Positions 12,044 to 28,935 of a stretch of 32,000 nucleotides of DNA are shown here, piece by piece. The DNA lies in assembly GCA_030688545.1 (NCBI GenBank), contig JAUYHT010000006.1, positions 390,001 to 422,000 on the forward strand. The letters are read 5' to 3'. The stretch's first letter is position 1. Every line of letters starts with the position of its first letter. Both the position numbers and the translations under genes were made by a program. Under the pieces are notes generated by a model. It worked only from the letters and a program-made list of their open reading frames with translations. It was not told the DNA's origin and did no database searches. The DNA comes from Candidatus Iainarchaeum sp. Its GTDB lineage: Archaea > Iainarchaeota > Iainarchaeia > Iainarchaeales > VGJJ01.

Positions 12044-12640
12044 TTAGATTCGGCGGATCTTGATGACATCCACCCGCTTGAGGGGGGATATCTTGTGCGC
12101 GGCCTGGGAAGTGGCCGTTGTTCCATCCCCTAATACAAGGGAGTGGAGCAATCCCTCGTATTCGCTTTCGAGCGCAAACGCCACCATATTATCGTGCATG
12201 ATCTTGCGAACAGCCGTCTGCTGGGACTGGGACATGCGTCCGGCGGTCAATGCCAGGCTTTTCACGCGCGCCCGCACCCCGTCTTTGGTTACCACATCAT
12301 CCACGCTCTCCACTTTGGAGGAACGTCGGCGCACCAGTCGTTTGAGAGCGCCGGTCTGCACGTGCATCGAGTCGAAAATGGTATTGGCATTGGTGCCTTG
12401 GACATCCAGCACGCGGAAATTGAGCATAACCTGGGTTTTCTTGATGTTTCCCGTGAGATCGCGGGCGCTCACTGAGATAATTCGGCCCACCATCTTCTCC
12501 GATTCTTCCGCGGGGGTTTCCCCAATGAGACGGTGGCTGAAGGACGCAGGAGCAAGAATGTGAAACCATTTTTTATTCTTCCATTTGTCAACGGTCTTCC
12601 GTCTCTTCACGGGGGGTTTGGTGGGTGTTTTTTCAGCCAT
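12044..12640 (-). CDS. rps3ae: 30S ribosomal protein S3Ae (eS1)
   Basis: 198 aa. N-terminus KRRKTVDKWKNKKWFHILAPASF is typical of S3Ae. Confidence 0.9.
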   Translation of the reverse strand: MAEKTPTKPPVKRRKTVDKWKNKKWFHILAPASFSHRLIGETPAEESEKMVGRIISVSARDLTGNIKKTQVMLNFRVLDVQGTNANTIFDSMHVQTGALKRLVRRRSSKVESVDDVVTKDGVRARVKSLALTAGRMSQSQQTAVRKIMHDNMVAFALESEYEGLLHSLVLGDGTTATSQAAHKISPLKRVDVIKIRRI

Positions 12641-17432: not shown

Positions 17433-18119
17433 ATGAATCTTCCTAAACCCAGACTACCAAAACGGACTCTGGAGAAGGCAACCGTCGTAGGAGTACATCA
17501 CACAACCAGAACAAATAGCCGTGTAAATCGAAACGTGGCGCGGGTGATTGAGATTCTTAGAGAACTCAAGAAAAGAGGAGATACTAAAGTTGGAATTGAA
17601 TGTTTGGAAGACACCCCACAAGCTCGGAATAATCCCCCGAGGCGCTATTTTCACGCTTTGTACTTAAGAGCCAAACGTATGGGTATTCAACTGGTGGAAG
17701 TAGAGGATAATAAAGTGTTTCACCTGAAAACCTTGGTTGAAACATTGAGCGCCCCACTCAGGGCCAAAACACACTTGACGGTTGGCGCTAAATATTTCGG
17801 CGAATTCACTCAAAAGGAGCTGCATGAGATTATTAACGCGTTGAACTATTTCAGGTCCATTAGGATGGCTGAAATTGCTAAGGCCGAAAAATTGAACACC
17901 TTCATTGTAGGAGGTAAACACGCTATGCAATTAAACACTCCATCATACCAGGTTGTTTTTCTAGAGAAACATCCAGATATGTACCACGCCAGACCGCATA
18001 CGTTGGAGGATCAACGCGTGAGAGAAAAAAGATACTTTGAAAAGTGGGAGAGGCTAATCCATGAAATGTACCAAGCATCTTCAGTAAAAAGTAACCGAGC
18101 GCGGCGCTCACAACCCTAA
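17433..18119 (+). CDS. Hypothetical protein, low-GC orphan; faint TraB/Tiki/ChaN-superfamily resemblance
   Basis: 228-aa ORF, visibly A/T-richer than its flanks. N-terminal VVGVHHT...VGIECLED and C-terminal FIVGGKHAMQL resemble the GTxH...E...GxxH layout of TraB/Tiki proteins. Not verifiable without an HMM search. The 3' end overlaps the dnaJ 3' end by 12 nt. Confidence 0.55.
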   Translation: MNLPKPRLPKRTLEKATVVGVHHTTRTNSRVNRNVARVIEILRELKKRGDTKVGIECLEDTPQARNNPPRRYFHALYLRAKRMGIQLVEVEDNKVFHLKTLVETLSAPLRAKTHLTVGAKYFGEFTQKELHEIINALNYFRSIRMAEIAKAEKLNTFIVGGKHAMQLNTPSYQVVFLEKHPDMYHARPHTLEDQRVREKRYFEKWERLIHEMYQASSVKSNRARRSQP

Positions 18120-21856: not shown

Positions 21857-22294
21857 ATGCCGTCCCTCCGGCAGTCCGGGTTCCGGATTGTCATCCGCCG
21901 GGTGGAACCGCCTTTCGAGCGGGATCCTGAGCAAGAAATGGAGTGGATCTGTCAAAGCCTGGGTTTCCTCCCCCTGAGGGGGGATCGGACGGCCATTGAT
22001 ATTTTCAAGCGGGTAGTGAAGGCCACCGAGGAAGGAAATGGAATTTCTTCCACCCAATTGGCGATCGCCTTGTCGTTGTCCCGGGGAGCGGTTATCAATC
22101 AACTCAACAACCTCCTCCGAAGTGGGTTAGTGGTGAAGGAAGGTCACAAATATTTTGCCCGCTCCCGGAGCATGGTGCGCACCCTCCGGGAGGTGGAGGA
22201 GGATGTCAAGCGCATATTCGACACGATGGAAGCGTATGCGCGGGAGATAGACAAGGAATTCGGCGTCTGGGAGAATGATTTTCCGGGGAGATGA
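21857..22294 (+). CDS. Winged helix-turn-helix transcriptional regulator (ArsR/TrmB-like)
   Basis: 145 aa. ISSTQLAIALSLSRGAVINQLNNLLRSGLVVKEG is a typical wHTH recognition helix plus wing. Divergent from grpE-dnaK-dnaJ. Confidence 0.7.
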   Translation: MPSLRQSGFRIVIRRVEPPFERDPEQEMEWICQSLGFLPLRGDRTAIDIFKRVVKATEEGNGISSTQLAIALSLSRGAVINQLNNLLRSGLVVKEGHKYFARSRSMVRTLREVEEDVKRIFDTMEAYAREIDKEFGVWENDFPGR

Positions 22295-22363: not shown

Positions 22364-22879
22364 ATGACATGGCACGCAGTATTATTTCCAGGCGTGTGGG
22401 TGCATGAGCTTTCCCACGCACTAGGATGCGTGCTCTCGGGGGTGCCGGTGCACCGGATTGAAGTGAAGATGTCCTCCGGAAGGGTGGTGCATGCCCCCCC
22501 TACGTGCCGGGGGAGCGTGCTCATCGGTCTCGCTCCACTCGTTATAGGCACTTTCCTGGCGCTGTTCGCTTTCTCCTGGGGGAAGGCGGAGGGATGGTCT
22601 TCCCCTTTCTTGGCCCTATTTTGGGGATGGTTGGGTTTCGCCATCGCGTTTCATTCCATCCCCAGCTATACGGATATGCGCAACATCCCCGCCACCGCCG
22701 TGCGTCGGATGGGAGAATTGTGGACAAGCAACCATTCCCTGGGGAGGAAATTAGTCTTTTCCCCAGGGTATGGAGGGGCATGGGTGGGGGGATGGATGAT
22801 GGCCATAGGGGGAATGCTGGTCAACACCTCGGTTTTATTCAGGATCCTTTGGGGAATTGGGATATGGGGGGTAGCGTGA
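22364..22879 (+). CDS. Putative membrane zinc metallopeptidase (HExxH, DUF3267-like)
   Basis: 171 aa. HELSH at residues 14-18 (WVHELSHALGCV), followed by several hydrophobic helices. Confidence 0.55.
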   Translation: MTWHAVLFPGVWVHELSHALGCVLSGVPVHRIEVKMSSGRVVHAPPTCRGSVLIGLAPLVIGTFLALFAFSWGKAEGWSSPFLALFWGWLGFAIAFHSIPSYTDMRNIPATAVRRMGELWTSNHSLGRKLVFSPGYGGAWVGGWMMAIGGMLVNTSVLFRILWGIGIWGVA

Positions 22880-22882
22880 TCT

Positions 22883-22888
22883 TTTATA
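22883..22888 (+). promoter_or_regulatory. TATA box (TTTATA) for the Cys-repeat lipoprotein gene
   Basis: 22 nt upstream of ATG 22910. Confidence 0.4.
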
Positions 22889-22909
22889 GCGGGGGGGAGT
22901 GGGGGTGTC

Positions 22910-24736
22910 ATGCGAGCATGGGGCATCTTAGGGATTTTGGGCATCCTCGCCCTGGCGGGATGCATTGATCTCATTTACGCCCCCGACCCGGGGAAGACAC
23001 AGAACCCGGTGGCGTGCGATTTGTTCACCGATTTCACCAGCAAGGACGCGTGCTTCCGTGATAAGGCGGTAGCGGAGAAGGATGGGTCCGCGTGTGAACG
23101 GATTGTGACCCCGGAGATTAAGGATGAGTGTTGGGCGCGCCTCTCCCCTATCCTGAAAGATATTTCCCTCTGCCTGCGAGTAACTTCTCCATCCACCCAG
23201 GCGACGTGTTTTGAATCCCAACCCGGTTTACTCGCGGCCGGGAAAATATGCCCATCCTTTACATTGGCATCCGAAAGGGAAACCTGCTACTATCATGCCG
23301 CCCGCGTGACGAATGATTACATTTTGTGCGAGAAGACGGGGGCGCAGAAGGATGCCTGTTTGAATGCGGTAGCCATCCGGTTGGCATCCGCGAGCGTGTG
23401 CTTAGGTATTTTGAACCTGGATTCCAGGGATACGTGCCTCCATGATACGGCCATCGCTTCCAAGGAAGGGGCGGCTTGCGGGCAAATCCAATCCCTTTCC
23501 ATGAGGGATGACTGCTTTTTGAGCGTGGCCGTGGCCCAAGTGAATAGCAAGCTCTGTGCGTCCATTGCGAGTACGCCATTGAAAGCCTCGTGTTTGGTGC
23601 AGGTGAAGAATGCCGCCACCTCCACATTGGAATGCCAAACCCTCTCTGATTTCGCATTGCGGGATGATTGCTTGGTGCAGTTGGCCTCGTCCAATATCCA
23701 AACCGATATCTGCGGTCTCGTCCTCAACGATGCCAAACGGGTTACTTGTTATGCACAAGTGGCCTTGCGCGTGGGGGATGTGGGAATCTGCGACTACATC
23801 ATCCAAGCGGTTGAAAAGCAGGCGTGCATCCAACGCATCGCGTCCAATAAAGGAACATTAGAGGCCTGCGATTTCTTGAGTGGGGTGCCCCGGGACGAAT
23901 GCATCATCCAGATTGCCGTGAAAGAAGGGAGCATGCAGTATTGCCTCTTCACCCGCACCATAACTTCGAGCGTGGATTACACTGATTTATGTTATGCCAC
24001 CGTAGCTAAACAGACCAACCAGCCCCAACCCTGCTTGCGTATCCAGGAGGCGGGAGAAAAGGATTCGTGCCTGCACGATGTGGGCATCGCCACCCAAAAT
24101 GTCTCGACGTGCGGTTTCATTACTTCAAAATCCATCCTAAGCGCGTGCCTCGCGGCCGTTGGCGCCAGTCAAGGGGATGCCTCGGCCTGCGCCTCCATTC
24201 CAGTGAAAGAAAGCAAGGATGCGTGTTACAAAGATCTGGCTATCCAACAGGATAATGCCGGGTTGTGCGGGAACATATTGAATAATTTCACCCGGGATGC
24301 GTGTTATTCTCGAGTAGGGCGAGACACCTCCGATGTGGGGGTTTGCCTGCTCATCATTTCATCCACGCTGGAGGATGCCTGCGTGAGCGAGGTGGCCATT
24401 GCGCTATCCGATGCCACGTATTGCCAACACATAGGGACGAGTAACATCATCCTGCAGGACGATTGCCTGGAGAAGGTGGCCCTGGCCCGCGCGGAATATT
24501 CCATCTGTGCCGGGCTTTCTAATGATACCAAGCGGGGGGTCTGCACGGGGAAGGTGGCCGTGCTGACGGGGAATGCCAACGCCTGCGGAGCGCTTCCTCT
24601 GGCGCCGGTGAAGGACAAAATTTTCCAATACAAAGCGCGGGACGCCTGCTGGAATCAAGTGGCGACCCAGGGAAAAGTCCCCGAGCTCTGCGCCAACATA
24701 TATGATGATACCCTCCGGAGTGCGTGTGAACCATGA
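22910..24736 (+). CDS. Cysteine-rich tandem-repeat lipoprotein (22 x 26-aa two-Cys repeats)
   Basis: 608 aa. Signal peptide plus lipobox MRAWGILGILGILALAGC. After that, 44 further Cys occur in a nearly invariant alternating C-x11-C-x13 spacing. Consensus: C-x-x-[IL]-x5-[RK]-D-x-C-[YLF]-x-x-[VI]-A-x4-[DN]-x3. Confidence 0.8.
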   Translation: MRAWGILGILGILALAGCIDLIYAPDPGKTQNPVACDLFTDFTSKDACFRDKAVAEKDGSACERIVTPEIKDECWARLSPILKDISLCLRVTSPSTQATCFESQPGLLAAGKICPSFTLASERETCYYHAARVTNDYILCEKTGAQKDACLNAVAIRLASASVCLGILNLDSRDTCLHDTAIASKEGAACGQIQSLSMRDDCFLSVAVAQVNSKLCASIASTPLKASCLVQVKNAATSTLECQTLSDFALRDDCLVQLASSNIQTDICGLVLNDAKRVTCYAQVALRVGDVGICDYIIQAVEKQACIQRIASNKGTLEACDFLSGVPRDECIIQIAVKEGSMQYCLFTRTITSSVDYTDLCYATVAKQTNQPQPCLRIQEAGEKDSCLHDVGIATQNVSTCGFITSKSILSACLAAVGASQGDASACASIPVKESKDACYKDLAIQQDNAGLCGNILNNFTRDACYSRVGRDTSDVGVCLLIISSTLEDACVSEVAIALSDATYCQHIGTSNIILQDDCLEKVALARAEYSICAGLSNDTKRGVCTGKVAVLTGNANACGALPLAPVKDKIFQYKARDACWNQVATQGKVPELCANIYDDTLRSACEP

Positions 24737-25041
24737 GACGAAAAAAGTTGGGAACCAGAAGGACGTGGGGCAATACTTCCATCGCCGAGGTATTAGGATA
24801 TCATGTCAACCGTGTCCGGGGCGATCATCGCATCCTCTTTCTATGGGTGGTTGAAATATTGTTGGCCGTTGGATTGGCCGCGAGCATGGCCATCTACTTG
24901 GACCCGGATATCAATGTGGTCCCTTTTCCATGGAATATTATCGCCTTCCTGATTATGTTGAGTATTGGGATTTGGCTCCACACCTATACGCGGCCCTACC
25001 GGATGGCCCGGCGAGTAATGTATAAGCGTTCCCGCAGCTAA
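24733..25041 (+). CDS. Small 2-TM membrane protein, hypothetical
   Basis: 102 aa. ATGA overlap with the stop of the Cys-repeat gene. Two hydrophobic helices (ILFLWVVEILLAVGLAASMAIY, IIAFLIMLSIGIWL) with basic termini. Confidence 0.6.
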   Translation: MRRKKLGTRRTWGNTSIAEVLGYHVNRVRGDHRILFLWVVEILLAVGLAASMAIYLDPDINVVPFPWNIIAFLIMLSIGIWLHTYTRPYRMARRVMYKRSRS

Positions 25042-25100: not shown

Positions 25101-25267
25101 TTTAGATCAACCCGAATCCAAAAATAGATACTTTTTTTGATCAAAATTTTTTTCTAGAAAAGAGCACGTTTTTTGATCAAACTTTTTCCTAAAAAAAGTC
25201 CGTTTTTTGATCAAACTTTTTTCTAAAAAAAGTCGTTTTTTGATCAACCTTTTTCCTAAAAAGTTTG
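25101..25267. repeat. Four to five tandem copies of the ~33-bp AT-rich repeat family (locus C)
   Basis: GATC cores at 25105 (degenerate copy), 25139, 25175, 25209 and 25242 (spacings 34, 36, 34, 33). Units 25168-25201 and 25202-25234 are nearly identical (GTTTTTTGATCAAACTTTTT(T/C)CTAAAAAAAGTC). Confidence 0.9.
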
Positions 25268-25305: not shown

Positions 25306-25491
25306 TTATGCTCGGCGCGCGCGGCGTCGCGCGGGGCGTCGGGCCGCGGGCTTTCGGGCCGTCGTACGGCGTCGCGTAGTGCGGCGTCGGGCGGTGGTCG
25401 TTGTGGCCTTGCGGCGCACTCGGCGTCTTTTTGCCGGTCGGGCGGCGGATGCAGCAGCGCTGCGGCTTCTTGCTCTTCGTCTTACAGCCAT
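25306..25491 (-). CDS. Small extremely basic Arg-rich protein (protamine-like), function unknown
   Basis: 61 aa with 25 Arg, 3 Lys and no Asp/Glu. AGGAGG (complement of 25501-25506) lies 9 nt upstream of the ATG. Hairpin plus T-tract downstream. Confidence 0.65.
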   Translation of the reverse strand: MAVRRRARSRSAAASAARPAKRRRVRRKATTTTARRRTTRRRTTARKPAARRPARRRARRA

Positions 25492-27566: not shown

Positions 27567-27742
27567 TCGCTATACCCACAGTTCCCGCATGATTCACGAT
27601 TGGTATGCATCGCCAGAAATACTCCAGGCCCGCATTTGGGGCAGAATTTCCCTTTTCGCGCGATGGCATCCGTTTTAGTTTCATACCGCGTGGATTTGCT
27701 CGTCTTTTTGGTTTTGGGGGCGGGTTTTCCTTTGTCGGCCAT
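27548..27742 (-). CDS. rps27ae: 30S ribosomal protein S27ae (eS31)
   Basis: 64 aa. Zinc ribbon CPKCGPGVFLAMHTNRESCGNCGY. Confidence 0.9.
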   Translation of the reverse strand: MADKGKPAPKTKKTSKSTRYETKTDAIARKGKFCPKCGPGVFLAMHTNRESCGNCGYSEWKSTI

Positions 27743-27759
27743 AGGGCTTATTCACCTCG

Positions 27760-28143
27760 TCACTCGGTCTCCGGTTTGGTTTCGGATTTGGTTTCAGCGG
27801 GCGGGGAATCTTTTGTTTCAGTCCCCCCACTGGGTGTATCCTTTGGGGACGTTTCTTTTTCCCCGGTGCTAATTCCATGGCGCTTGCGCGCGTATTCGGG
27901 TTCAATTCTAAGCAGGTCTTCCATCGAATCGTATTTTTTGGCAAACCCCACTACGCGGGAGGTGCCGAAAGTGTGGTCGATGTTCTCGATAATAACTAAC
28001 TGTTCATCCACCCCCAATTGGGCCGCCAGGCGGGTGCGCAATGTTTTCCGGTCGGGAATGGTTTTCACATCCAATAGCTCGAAATTGAGTTCTTCCCGGT
28101 GCAAGAGGGGGTTCTTGTGGCGTCCTTCGATCTCTATTTCCAT
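27760..28143 (-). CDS. rps24e: 30S ribosomal protein S24e, with a Thr/Pro/Glu-rich C-terminal tail
   Basis: 127 aa. NPLLHREELNFEL..KTIPDRKTLRTRLAAQLG and GFAKKYDS are typical of S24e. The last ~35 aa are low complexity. Confidence 0.88.
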   Translation of the reverse strand: MEIEIEGRHKNPLLHREELNFELLDVKTIPDRKTLRTRLAAQLGVDEQLVIIENIDHTFGTSRVVGFAKKYDSMEDLLRIEPEYARKRHGISTGEKETSPKDTPSGGTETKDSPPAETKSETKPETE

Positions 28144-28153
28144 GTTTTCACCC

Positions 28154-28345
28154 TCATCGGCTCAGGCGCAGGGCATATTTGCCCTGGCCCTTGATTCCCA
28201 TCTTCTGGGCGACTTCGCTTTTTTCAGGATTCACGAAATACACGAGGCCCGACCAGAAGGTCGTGGATTCGGTGCTGTGGCAGACCGGGCACTCCTTCTC
28301 ATCCTCGTACAGTTTATTGCAGGAGCGGCACGCCTTCTCTTTCAT
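28154..28345 (-). CDS. spt4: Transcription elongation factor Spt4 (RpoE'')
   Basis: 63 aa. Zinc ribbon CRSC...CPVC followed by W.G (FWSGLVYF). ATGA overlap with the rpoE' stop. Confidence 0.88.
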   Translation of the reverse strand: MKEKACRSCNKLYEDEKECPVCHSTESTTFWSGLVYFVNPEKSEVAQKMGIKGQGKYALRLSR

Positions 28346-28935
28346 GCGACATCCCCTCCCTTGGGGGGCGCTTTGCCCTTGGGTTTAGCGACGCGGGCGG
28401 GTTTGATCTTGGCCCATTCCTTCTTCCCCAACCCGGGTTGGCGCATGGTCAACCCTATTTTTGAATCGGGCACTGAATTCTTCATGCTCACGCTCACGAT
28501 GCGGGCGATGACATTATCCCCCACCTTCAAGGTGCGCTTGCTATCCCGTCCAATGAATCCAGGGAGTTTAGCGTCGAAGCTCACGAAGTCATCGGCAATT
28601 TGGGACACATGAATCAACCCCTCAATGGGGCCGGTGCGGAGGAACGCCCCGAACTCCGTGGCCTCGGAGATGTTTCCTTCCACGACTTCATTCACTTGGG
28701 GTTTGTATGAAATGAATGTGATCTGGGAATCGAAATAGGCCGCGGGGTCTCCGGGAACAATTTTCCCTTCCCCTAACCGTTTGGCGTCCACGATGGCCAC
28801 CACCACCCCCGTATCGGGATCCACGAGCCCCTCCACGTCCTCGCGCACGATTTCTAAAACCGCATGGTCCAGATGGCCCGAGAATTTGGTGGGGGGCACC
28901 CGGATGGTATCACGAATGGTAATGAGCGCGTACAT
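28342..28935 (-). CDS. rpoE: DNA-directed RNA polymerase subunit E' (Rpo7)
   Basis: 197 aa. N-terminal Rpb7 fold (MYALITIRDTIRVPP), then an S1 domain (VVEGNISEATEFGAFLRTGPIEGLIHVSQI). Confidence 0.9.
   Translation of the reverse strand: MYALITIRDTIRVPPTKFSGHLDHAVLEIVREDVEGLVDPDTGVVVAIVDAKRLGEGKIVPGDPAAYFDSQITFISYKPQVNEVVEGNISEATEFGAFLRTGPIEGLIHVSQIADDFVSFDAKLPGFIGRDSKRTLKVGDNVIARIVSVSMKNSVPDSKIGLTMRQPGLGKKEWAKIKPARVAKPKGKAPPKGGDVA

Follow-up and report, generated by a model that had tools for sequence, protein, structure and literature searches.

What kind of protein carries 44 cysteines at almost fixed intervals behind a lipoprotein signal, and what might it do at the surface of an archaeal cell? 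The question is raised by one gene in a 32,000-nucleotide stretch of DNA from Candidatus Iainarchaeum sp. (contig JAUYHT010000006.1 of GCA_030688545.1, positions 390,001 to 422,000; hereafter the window, whose own numbering is used throughout). The coding sequence of this gene occupies positions 22910..24736, stop codon included, on the + strand and specifies a lipoprotein of 608 amino acids (aa). A preliminary description, made from the letters alone, had recognized a signal peptide, a lipobox and a long series of two-cysteine repeats, and had proposed that these repeats form a helical hairpin solenoid. Profile searches identify the window protein as one member of a very large unannotated family in DPANN archaea and at least one bacterium of the candidate phyla radiation (CPR). 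As to its role, we give an even chance to the reading that it serves an ultra-small and probably host-attached cell as a surface scaffold, spacer, or adhesion module, anchored by archaeol and stapled by disulfides.

A cysteine-repeat lipoprotein and its family

The open reading frame (ORF) begins with ATG and encodes 45 cysteines in all. Its product opens with the positively charged MR, continues with the hydrophobic stretch AWGILGILGILALA, and arrives at the lipobox L-A-G-C18, so that the LALAGC motif read in the preliminary description is indeed present and is closed by C18. The signal peptide and lipobox together (MRAWGILGILGILALAG-C18) cover positions 22910..22963 (+), with C18 as the predicted lipidation site, and the succession of MR, AWGILGILGILA, and L-A-G-C18 agrees with the published lipobox definition, [L/V/I]-3 [A/S/T/V/I]-2 [G/A/S]-1 C+1 (PMC12462473). 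A 17-residue stretch then separates C18 from C36, the first of the 44 cysteines of the repeat array, which extends to C606 (23015..24727, +).

From C36 to C606, the spacers between successive cysteines were 11,13,11,13,11,13,11,13,9,13,11,13,11,13,11,13,11,13,11,13,11,13 in the first part of the array and 10,13,15,13,11,13,11,13,11,13,11,13,11,13,13,13,11,13,20,13,11 in the remainder. Each of the 21 pair-to-pair linkers has a length of exactly 13 residues, and 17 of the 22 within-pair spacers are 11 residues long; the five odd ones are, in order, 9, 10, 15, 13, and 20, which agrees with the five or six deviations counted earlier. The array opens with C36-x11-C48 and closes with C594-x11-C606-E-P. 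Counted strictly, it holds 21 full 26-residue repeats and a closing half repeat, that is, 22 C-x11-C pairs.

This regularity lies far outside what composition would give. Cysteine makes up 7.4% of the 608-aa protein versus 0.93% across 22 neighboring genes, and spacers of 13 residues were observed 22 times (the 21 linkers and one within-pair spacer) as against a maximum of 9 in 100,000 shuffles of the mature sequence (binomial P ~2e-23 for the x13 spacing). The mature protein has a mass of 62.8 kDa, is acidic (pI 4.9), and contains three N-x-S/T sequons.

A sequence so repetitive might be an ORF by chance only, a pseudogene in decay, or the result of misassembly of repeated DNA. At the DNA level, the repeats have only segments of 15 to 34 nucleotides (nt) in common, with 71 to 87% identity, and the double units of the protein are 17 to 30% identical to one another in amino acids; these values argue that the repeats are old and diverged and not a product of assembly. 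The gene is called at the same position in public assemblies, and two independent contigs encode the identical protein. All of the cysteines are kept in orthologues of the same length, thousands of more distant relatives exist, and the ratio of nonsynonymous to synonymous substitution rates (dN/dS) of the lipoprotein gene between two close strains (loci L003 and L010) was 0.07, with a dN of 0.027 and a dS of 0.37. The lipoprotein gene is therefore functional and under purifying selection. A nonfunctional ORF is refuted by the size of the family, the orthologues, and the dN/dS ratio, and the probability that any of these trivial explanations applies is negligible.

The orthologue (P0002/P0152) has 608 aa, aligns with the window protein from end to end with a single gap at 31 to 32% identity, and retains all 45 cysteines and all five odd spacers; the lipobox region of the orthologues reads V/G-S-A-G-C. 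The gene for this orthologue lies in locus L003 (GCA_964480125.1), which keeps full synteny with the window in the order winged helix-turn-helix (wHTH) regulator, HExxH membrane protein, lipoprotein, small protein with two transmembrane segments (two-TM protein), RibL-like gene, and Kae1. The neighbors encoded there are 34 to 78% identical to those of the window (most of them 45 to 78%), and the lipoprotein, at 31%, is the most diverged product of the block. Between L003 and L010, dN was ~0.006 for housekeeping genes and 0.026 for the HExxH and two-TM genes. Positive or diversifying selection was considered as the cause of the low orthologue identity and found no support, given an omega of 0.07 between close strains. 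Surface positions of the lipoprotein evolve faster while length and cysteines stay locked. Two of the odd-length insertions are also kept between orthologues, R-x-ITS...Y-x-D within the x15 spacer and P-L-A-x-V-x-D within the x20 spacer, and such conserved insertions could be candidate binding loops.

The extent of the family was assessed by an exhaustive HMMER search with a profile built from ten double repeats of the window protein, in which all counts refer to protein cluster representatives. At E<=1e-3 the profile matched 7,505 clusters; tightening the threshold to E<=1e-10 left 2,851 of them, and E<=1e-30 left 231. Each of the best 150 members carries 6 to 25 C-x11-C-x13 units. The N-terminal membrane anchor, represented by LALAGC in the window protein, recurs in these relatives, about half of which match the lipobox pattern while many others open with an N-terminal hydrophobic (TM-like) segment. 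Over 1,084 canonical units from 152 members, the consensus was C-[ED]-K-I-x-D-x3-[KR]-D-x-C-Y-x2-[VIL]-A-x4-[DN]-x-S-[IL]; the repeat consensus that had been proposed from the window protein holds both there and in these units. The window protein has the tandem ~26-aa consensus units of the family and a C-x~11-C pair at both ends of its array, and none of the 152 members examined has a longer uninterrupted array than the 22 pairs found in it and its orthologues. In one locus, L005, two family members stand in tandem.

Names attached to family members are either 'hypothetical protein' or borrowed from an added domain, and the organisms that could be named were Ca. Diapherotrites (twice), Ca. 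Altiarchaeota (twice), a CPR bacterium (Ca. Paceibacterota), and an unclassified archaeon known from a metagenome-assembled genome. In a Pfam survey of 89 members, no model covered the repeat; occasional extra domains were fn3, bacterial TSP3, SdrD-B, and CarboxypepD_reg, all typical of extracellular proteins. The window protein itself matched no Pfam family at E<=1, NCBIfam was likewise empty, and PDB sequences gave no match to the single sequence, nor to the profile even at E<=10, all in line with the earlier impression that the repeat belongs to no named family. A tblastn search of phage and plasmid collections returned no match, and a word-indexed homology search with the full protein or a three-orthologue alignment returned no scoring match although the orthologues are in that collection. 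No prior description of the C-x11-C-x13 repeat was found in the searchable literature, which is not proof that none exists.

Predicted fold and cysteine pairing

Structures were predicted with AlphaFold2 (AF2) for the full-length protein, from a 47-row family alignment, and for a five-repeat fragment (residues 375-505), from a gap-free 37-row alignment. The full-length model reached a mean predicted local distance difference test score (pLDDT) of 85.7, with long stretches above 95 and a predicted template modeling score (pTM) of 0.58; the fragment reached a pLDDT of 97.8 and a pTM of 0.89. Both models are all-alpha. In each, the predicted unit consists of a helix of ~15 residues (repeat positions 7-21, with Cys13) and a helix of 4 to 6 residues (positions 24-3, with Cys1). 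The hairpin solenoid put forward in the preliminary description was thus half right: the AF2 models, together with the array-boundary and cysteine-parity statistics given below, support an alpha solenoid with one cysteine pair per repeat, but its unit is a long helix plus a short one and not a symmetric hairpin. From the consensus and the fragment model, the conserved positions 10/13/14/17/18/21 and 26/1/4 would each occupy a single helical face, and on this basis both cysteines apparently face the core.

Foldseek comparisons with the PDB returned nothing below E=1e-3 for either model. The full-length model retrieved TPR/HAT proteins of pre-mRNA splicing, Ctr9, SKI, and IFT-A (best E 1.1e-3; template modeling scores of 0.1-0.2), and the fragment retrieved the VPS35 HEAT-like solenoid and the PRORP1 PPR domain (best E 0.74; scores <=0.59). 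Matches to known structures were limited to generic TPR/PPR/HEAT solenoids above the E=1e-3 level. Against BFVD nothing significant was found, with Sel1/HCP-like viral proteins appearing only at E>3. The TPR, PPR, HAT, and HEAT families have an all-alpha superhelical repeat architecture in common with the window protein; unlike it, they have periods of 34 to 40 aa, two equal helices, and no cysteine ladder, and they are mostly intracellular. The 34-aa TPR motif was not recognized either, as the protein has no Pfam match. The alpha-solenoid class is known, and the predicted 26-aa repeat geometry is without a solved counterpart in the searches made.

Two described repeat families come closer. 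In the Helicobacter proteins HcpA, HcpB, and HcpC (Sel1-like repeats, PF08238), which are likewise exported alpha-solenoids with a conserved cysteine pair in every repeat, the pair links the two helices of its repeat by a disulfide, as known from the HcpB and HcpC structures. Sel1-like repeats, however, have a period of 36 aa or more against 26 aa in the window protein, consist of two antiparallel helices of similar length where the window repeat has 15-residue and 4-6-residue helices, and follow a different consensus. Neither the window protein (E<=1) nor its 89 relatives (E<=0.01) matched PF08238, and Hcp structures were absent from the best 50 Foldseek matches in the PDB. The LRV repeat (PF01816; Azotobacter 1LRV) is a 24-aa right-handed solenoid of alternating alpha- and 3-10-helices and, as an architectural analogy, would be the nearest arrangement to a long plus a very short helix per 26 aa; in contrast to the window protein, it is cytoplasmic and has no conserved cysteine pair. 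LRV gave no Pfam match and was not among the best 50 Foldseek matches. The nearest described concept is the Helicobacter Hcp/Sel1-like family, although by sequence the window protein is not one of its members.

How the cysteines pair can be approached from the ends of the arrays. Across the family, arrays had an x~11 spacer first in a ratio of 52:1 and an x~11 spacer last in a ratio of 53:7, and 111 of the 126 proteins that stop soon after their last cysteine end on a C-x~11-C pair. The number of cysteines following the lipobox cysteine is even in 69 of the 75 lipobox members (92%). From these boundaries and even counts, the unit is therefore one cysteine pair per repeat. Losses of single cysteines within arrays are nearly absent and too few for correlated loss to decide the disulfide partners. 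Neither even nor odd pair numbers are preferred among the arrays (69:83), and four-cysteine metal sites formed from two repeats were rejected on this ground. Taken from the sequence statistics, the intra-unit pair is most likely a disulfide by which the short helix is stapled to the long helix that comes next.

The main rival to disulfides leaves the cysteines reduced, as thiolate ligands or redox groups. On that account, the solenoid would merely display 22 bidentate cysteine sites, and the protein would be a redox buffer or would bind soft metals (Fe, Ni, Cu, Zn, Cd) or sulfur species with high capacity at the cell surface. The conservation pattern in family units lends itself to this idea, since both cysteines are 100% invariant and other core positions are less conserved (A18 74%, I4 60%), and so does the acidity of the mature protein. 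Many DPANN and CPR habitats are anoxic, and such habitats would disfavor disulfides. The cysteines lie, however, on the conserved and apparently core-facing stripes described above, where ligand access would be poor; the window protein has only 4 histidines, no CxxC or CxxCH motif, and no cysteine spacing below 9; and, with no even preference in pair number, tetrahedral Cys4 sites spanning two repeats are not expected, which would leave two thiolates that by themselves bind weakly and without specificity. We regard a thiol or metal function as quite unlikely, and the pairs are read in what follows as probable disulfides.

Neighboring genes and side observations

The informational genes of the window are archaeal (aIF2-gamma, aIF5B, Spt4, Rpo7, the ribosomal proteins S6e, S24e, and S27e, and Kae1), and a DnaK-DnaJ-GrpE cluster is also present. 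The aIF2-gamma is 71 to 72% identical to proteins named Ca. Diapherotrites and Ca. Iainarchaeum. This identity and the archaeal neighbors therefore place the window in a DPANN archaeon of the Diapherotrites/Iainarchaeum lineage.

A TATA-like box, cTTTTATAg (22882..22890, +), read from the sequence 20 to 28 nt upstream of the ATG, substantiates the TATA element noted earlier for this gene; each of the four orthologous loci (the window, L003, L010, and L004) has a TATA-like A/T box ~20 to 30 nt ahead of its ATG. Because the box lies so near the start codon, the arrangement fits a promoter of the gene's own and a leaderless or near-leaderless mRNA. Downstream, the coding sequence overlaps by ATGA (24733-24736) with the gene of a 102-aa two-TM protein (24733..25041, +), which has basic termini and a conserved outside loop, LDPDINVVPFPW. 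The translational coupling that had been suggested for this pair gains weight from the other loci, as in L003, L010, and L004 the orthologous lipoprotein gene is immediately followed by one for a homologue of the two-TM protein, making four Diapherotrites loci with the window. The two-TM protein has no Pfam match, and it is absent beside the more distant family members in L001, L005, L006, and L008. Part of our best reading is that the lipoprotein would be co-expressed with this small partner in the Diapherotrites/Iainarchaeota lineage.

Two genes precede the lipoprotein gene on the same strand. The nearer one (22364..22879, +), 30 nt upstream, encodes a polytopic membrane protein of 171 aa that carries HExxH (as HELSH) in its N-terminal part and has sub-threshold Pfam matches to DUF3267 'putative zincin peptidase' and to Peptidase_M50B. 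The motif is kept as HEAAH in the L003 and L010 versions, and the gene is absent from L004; it is a possible partner with a weak association, and the notion that its product could process the lipoprotein is pure speculation. The farther one (21857..22294, +) encodes a winged-helix, MarR/Lrs14-like regulator, recognized by sub-threshold wHTH matches, with homologues in L003, L010, and L004.

Parts of this neighborhood speak for a different function, in which the solenoid would be mainly a specific protein or ligand receptor of the TPR/Sel1 type that works with the two-TM protein, perhaps as a sensor or in a docking or uptake complex at the membrane. The coupled two-TM gene is kept in four loci with its outside loop conserved, a conserved wHTH regulator lies nearby, and the two odd-length insertions R-x-ITS...Y-x-D and P-L-A-x-V-x-D are conserved in sequence between orthologues. 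Alpha-solenoids, moreover, generally serve as binding platforms. Set against this are the absence of the two-TM partner from more distant family members and the fast divergence of the surface, at 31% identity between orthologues. A dedicated receptor is in our view unlikely, and a structural module at the cell surface stays the preferred account.

The more distant positional orthologue P0006 (721 aa, L004) is encoded between GrpE/wHTH and Kae1/Rce1 and is followed by a two-TM homologue. Beside it on the same Diapherotrites contig lies a gene (L004 2005-4866, -) for a 953-aa protein with Kazal-type inhibitor domains, another cysteine-rich secreted protein, and a 74-aa lipobox protein also adjoins the P0006 gene. 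On a Ca. Paceibacterota contig (L008 3146-8163), several adjacent genes have in common an N-terminal anchor motif (MPFITQGKTNVKYLAIV...), which also opens some members of the cysteine-repeat family, such as P0026; MPFITQGKTNVKYLAIV seems to be a shared CPR signal for export or anchoring.

Elsewhere in the window, an AT-rich 34-nt unit (TTTTTTGATCAAACTTTTTCCTAAAAAAAGTCG) that contains the palindrome TTGATCAA occurs 3.8 times in tandem at positions 25133-25262, between two convergent genes; the equivalent spacer of L003 measures only 284 nt (12143-12427). These repeats could form a protein-binding array. An uncalled 61-aa ORF on the - strand (25306-25491) lies in a GC-rich island, and its product is basic and extremely rich in Arg, Ala, and Thr (MAVRRRARSRSAAASAARPAKRRRVRRKATTTTARRRTTRRRTTARKPAARRPARRRARRA). 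Before the ORF stands TATAAGGAGGTAAACCCAA-ATG, and after it a GGCCGG-CTAC-CCGGCC hairpin with a T-run; the ORF has no Pfam match and no gene call in the public assembly, and its product is probably a real small nucleic acid-binding protein. Two further ORFs, of 228 aa (17433-18119, +) and 335 aa (27605-28612, +), matched no Pfam family at E<=1e-5, and the former has no counterpart in the syntenic locus L003.

Predicted surface anchoring, putative role, and implications

Lipobox lipoproteins and the lipidation enzyme AliA have been reported in DPANN archaea, and the lipoprotein anchor in Haloferax is a thioether-linked archaeol (PMC12462473). The L-A-G-C N-terminus of the window protein fits the archaeal lipobox lipoproteins of the AliA/AliB pathway, a likeness that covers the mode of anchoring and not the passenger domain. 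Cleavage of the signal peptide is predicted, and lipidation of C18 is inferred from the AliA reported in DPANN. We know of no experimentally studied archaeal lipoprotein that carries a C-x11-C-x13 repeat.

These elements can be assembled into a working model. A Sec-type signal peptide would direct export of the protein, and a lipid on Cys18, by analogy with Haloferax an archaeol thioether, would hold it on the outside of the membrane. Beyond the 17-residue linker, 22 units, each a 4-6-residue helix followed by a 15-residue helix with one invariant core-facing cysteine apiece, would build a long all-alpha solenoid, and rigid 13-residue connectors would link one unit to the next. Disulfide staples would turn this solenoid into a covalently reinforced rod or superhelix, a shape that we infer, on whose fixed scaffold the surface residues would be free to diverge. 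A structural surface module is favored because the protein has a predicted lipid anchor (nearly always lipid or TM in relatives), because relatives carry extracellular accessory domains, sometimes of the adhesin type, and because a length-locked scaffold is combined with a fast-diverging surface; the acidic mature protein and the occurrence of the family in DPANN archaea and at least one CPR bacterium point the same way.

Several points weigh against this model. The global shape is uncertain (pTM 0.58), with low confidence at residues 290-350 and 560-570, zones that coincide with odd spacers, and at residues 97-118, which are degenerate Pro/Gly-rich repeats. Extracellular disulfide formation is uncertain for an organism that possibly lives in anoxic habitats, and no Dsb- or VKOR-like gene is visible within the 32-kb window. 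No neighboring gene is conserved as a partner across the wider family loci, the taxonomic distribution is based on just seven named records, and the scaffold or adhesin role draws on architecture and family context only.

A broader and more doubtful proposal extends the model to the family as a whole. In it, the repeat would define a new and very abundant extracellular fold, a short-period alpha-solenoid with an unbroken disulfide ladder. It would be a signature surface module of ultra-small, host-dependent DPANN archaea and CPR bacteria that spread horizontally between the two domains and serves in rigid stalks or adhesive scaffolds for host attachment, with the exceptionally long, length-locked 22-unit form of Diapherotrites docked to a dedicated two-TM partner.

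DPANN archaea and the CPR make up a large share of microbial diversity, and their host-attaching cell surfaces are mostly unannotated. The repeat marks thousands of membrane-anchored 'hypothetical' proteins, which a repeat profile would annotate. Its 26-aa geometry of long and short helices, predicted with very high confidence and without a significant PDB match, is a good target for structure determination and, if disulfide-stapled, would offer a naturally cross-linked repeat scaffold for protein engineering. How anaerobic cells with reduced genomes form or put to use 22 extracellular cysteine pairs in a single protein is a further question that the finding poses.

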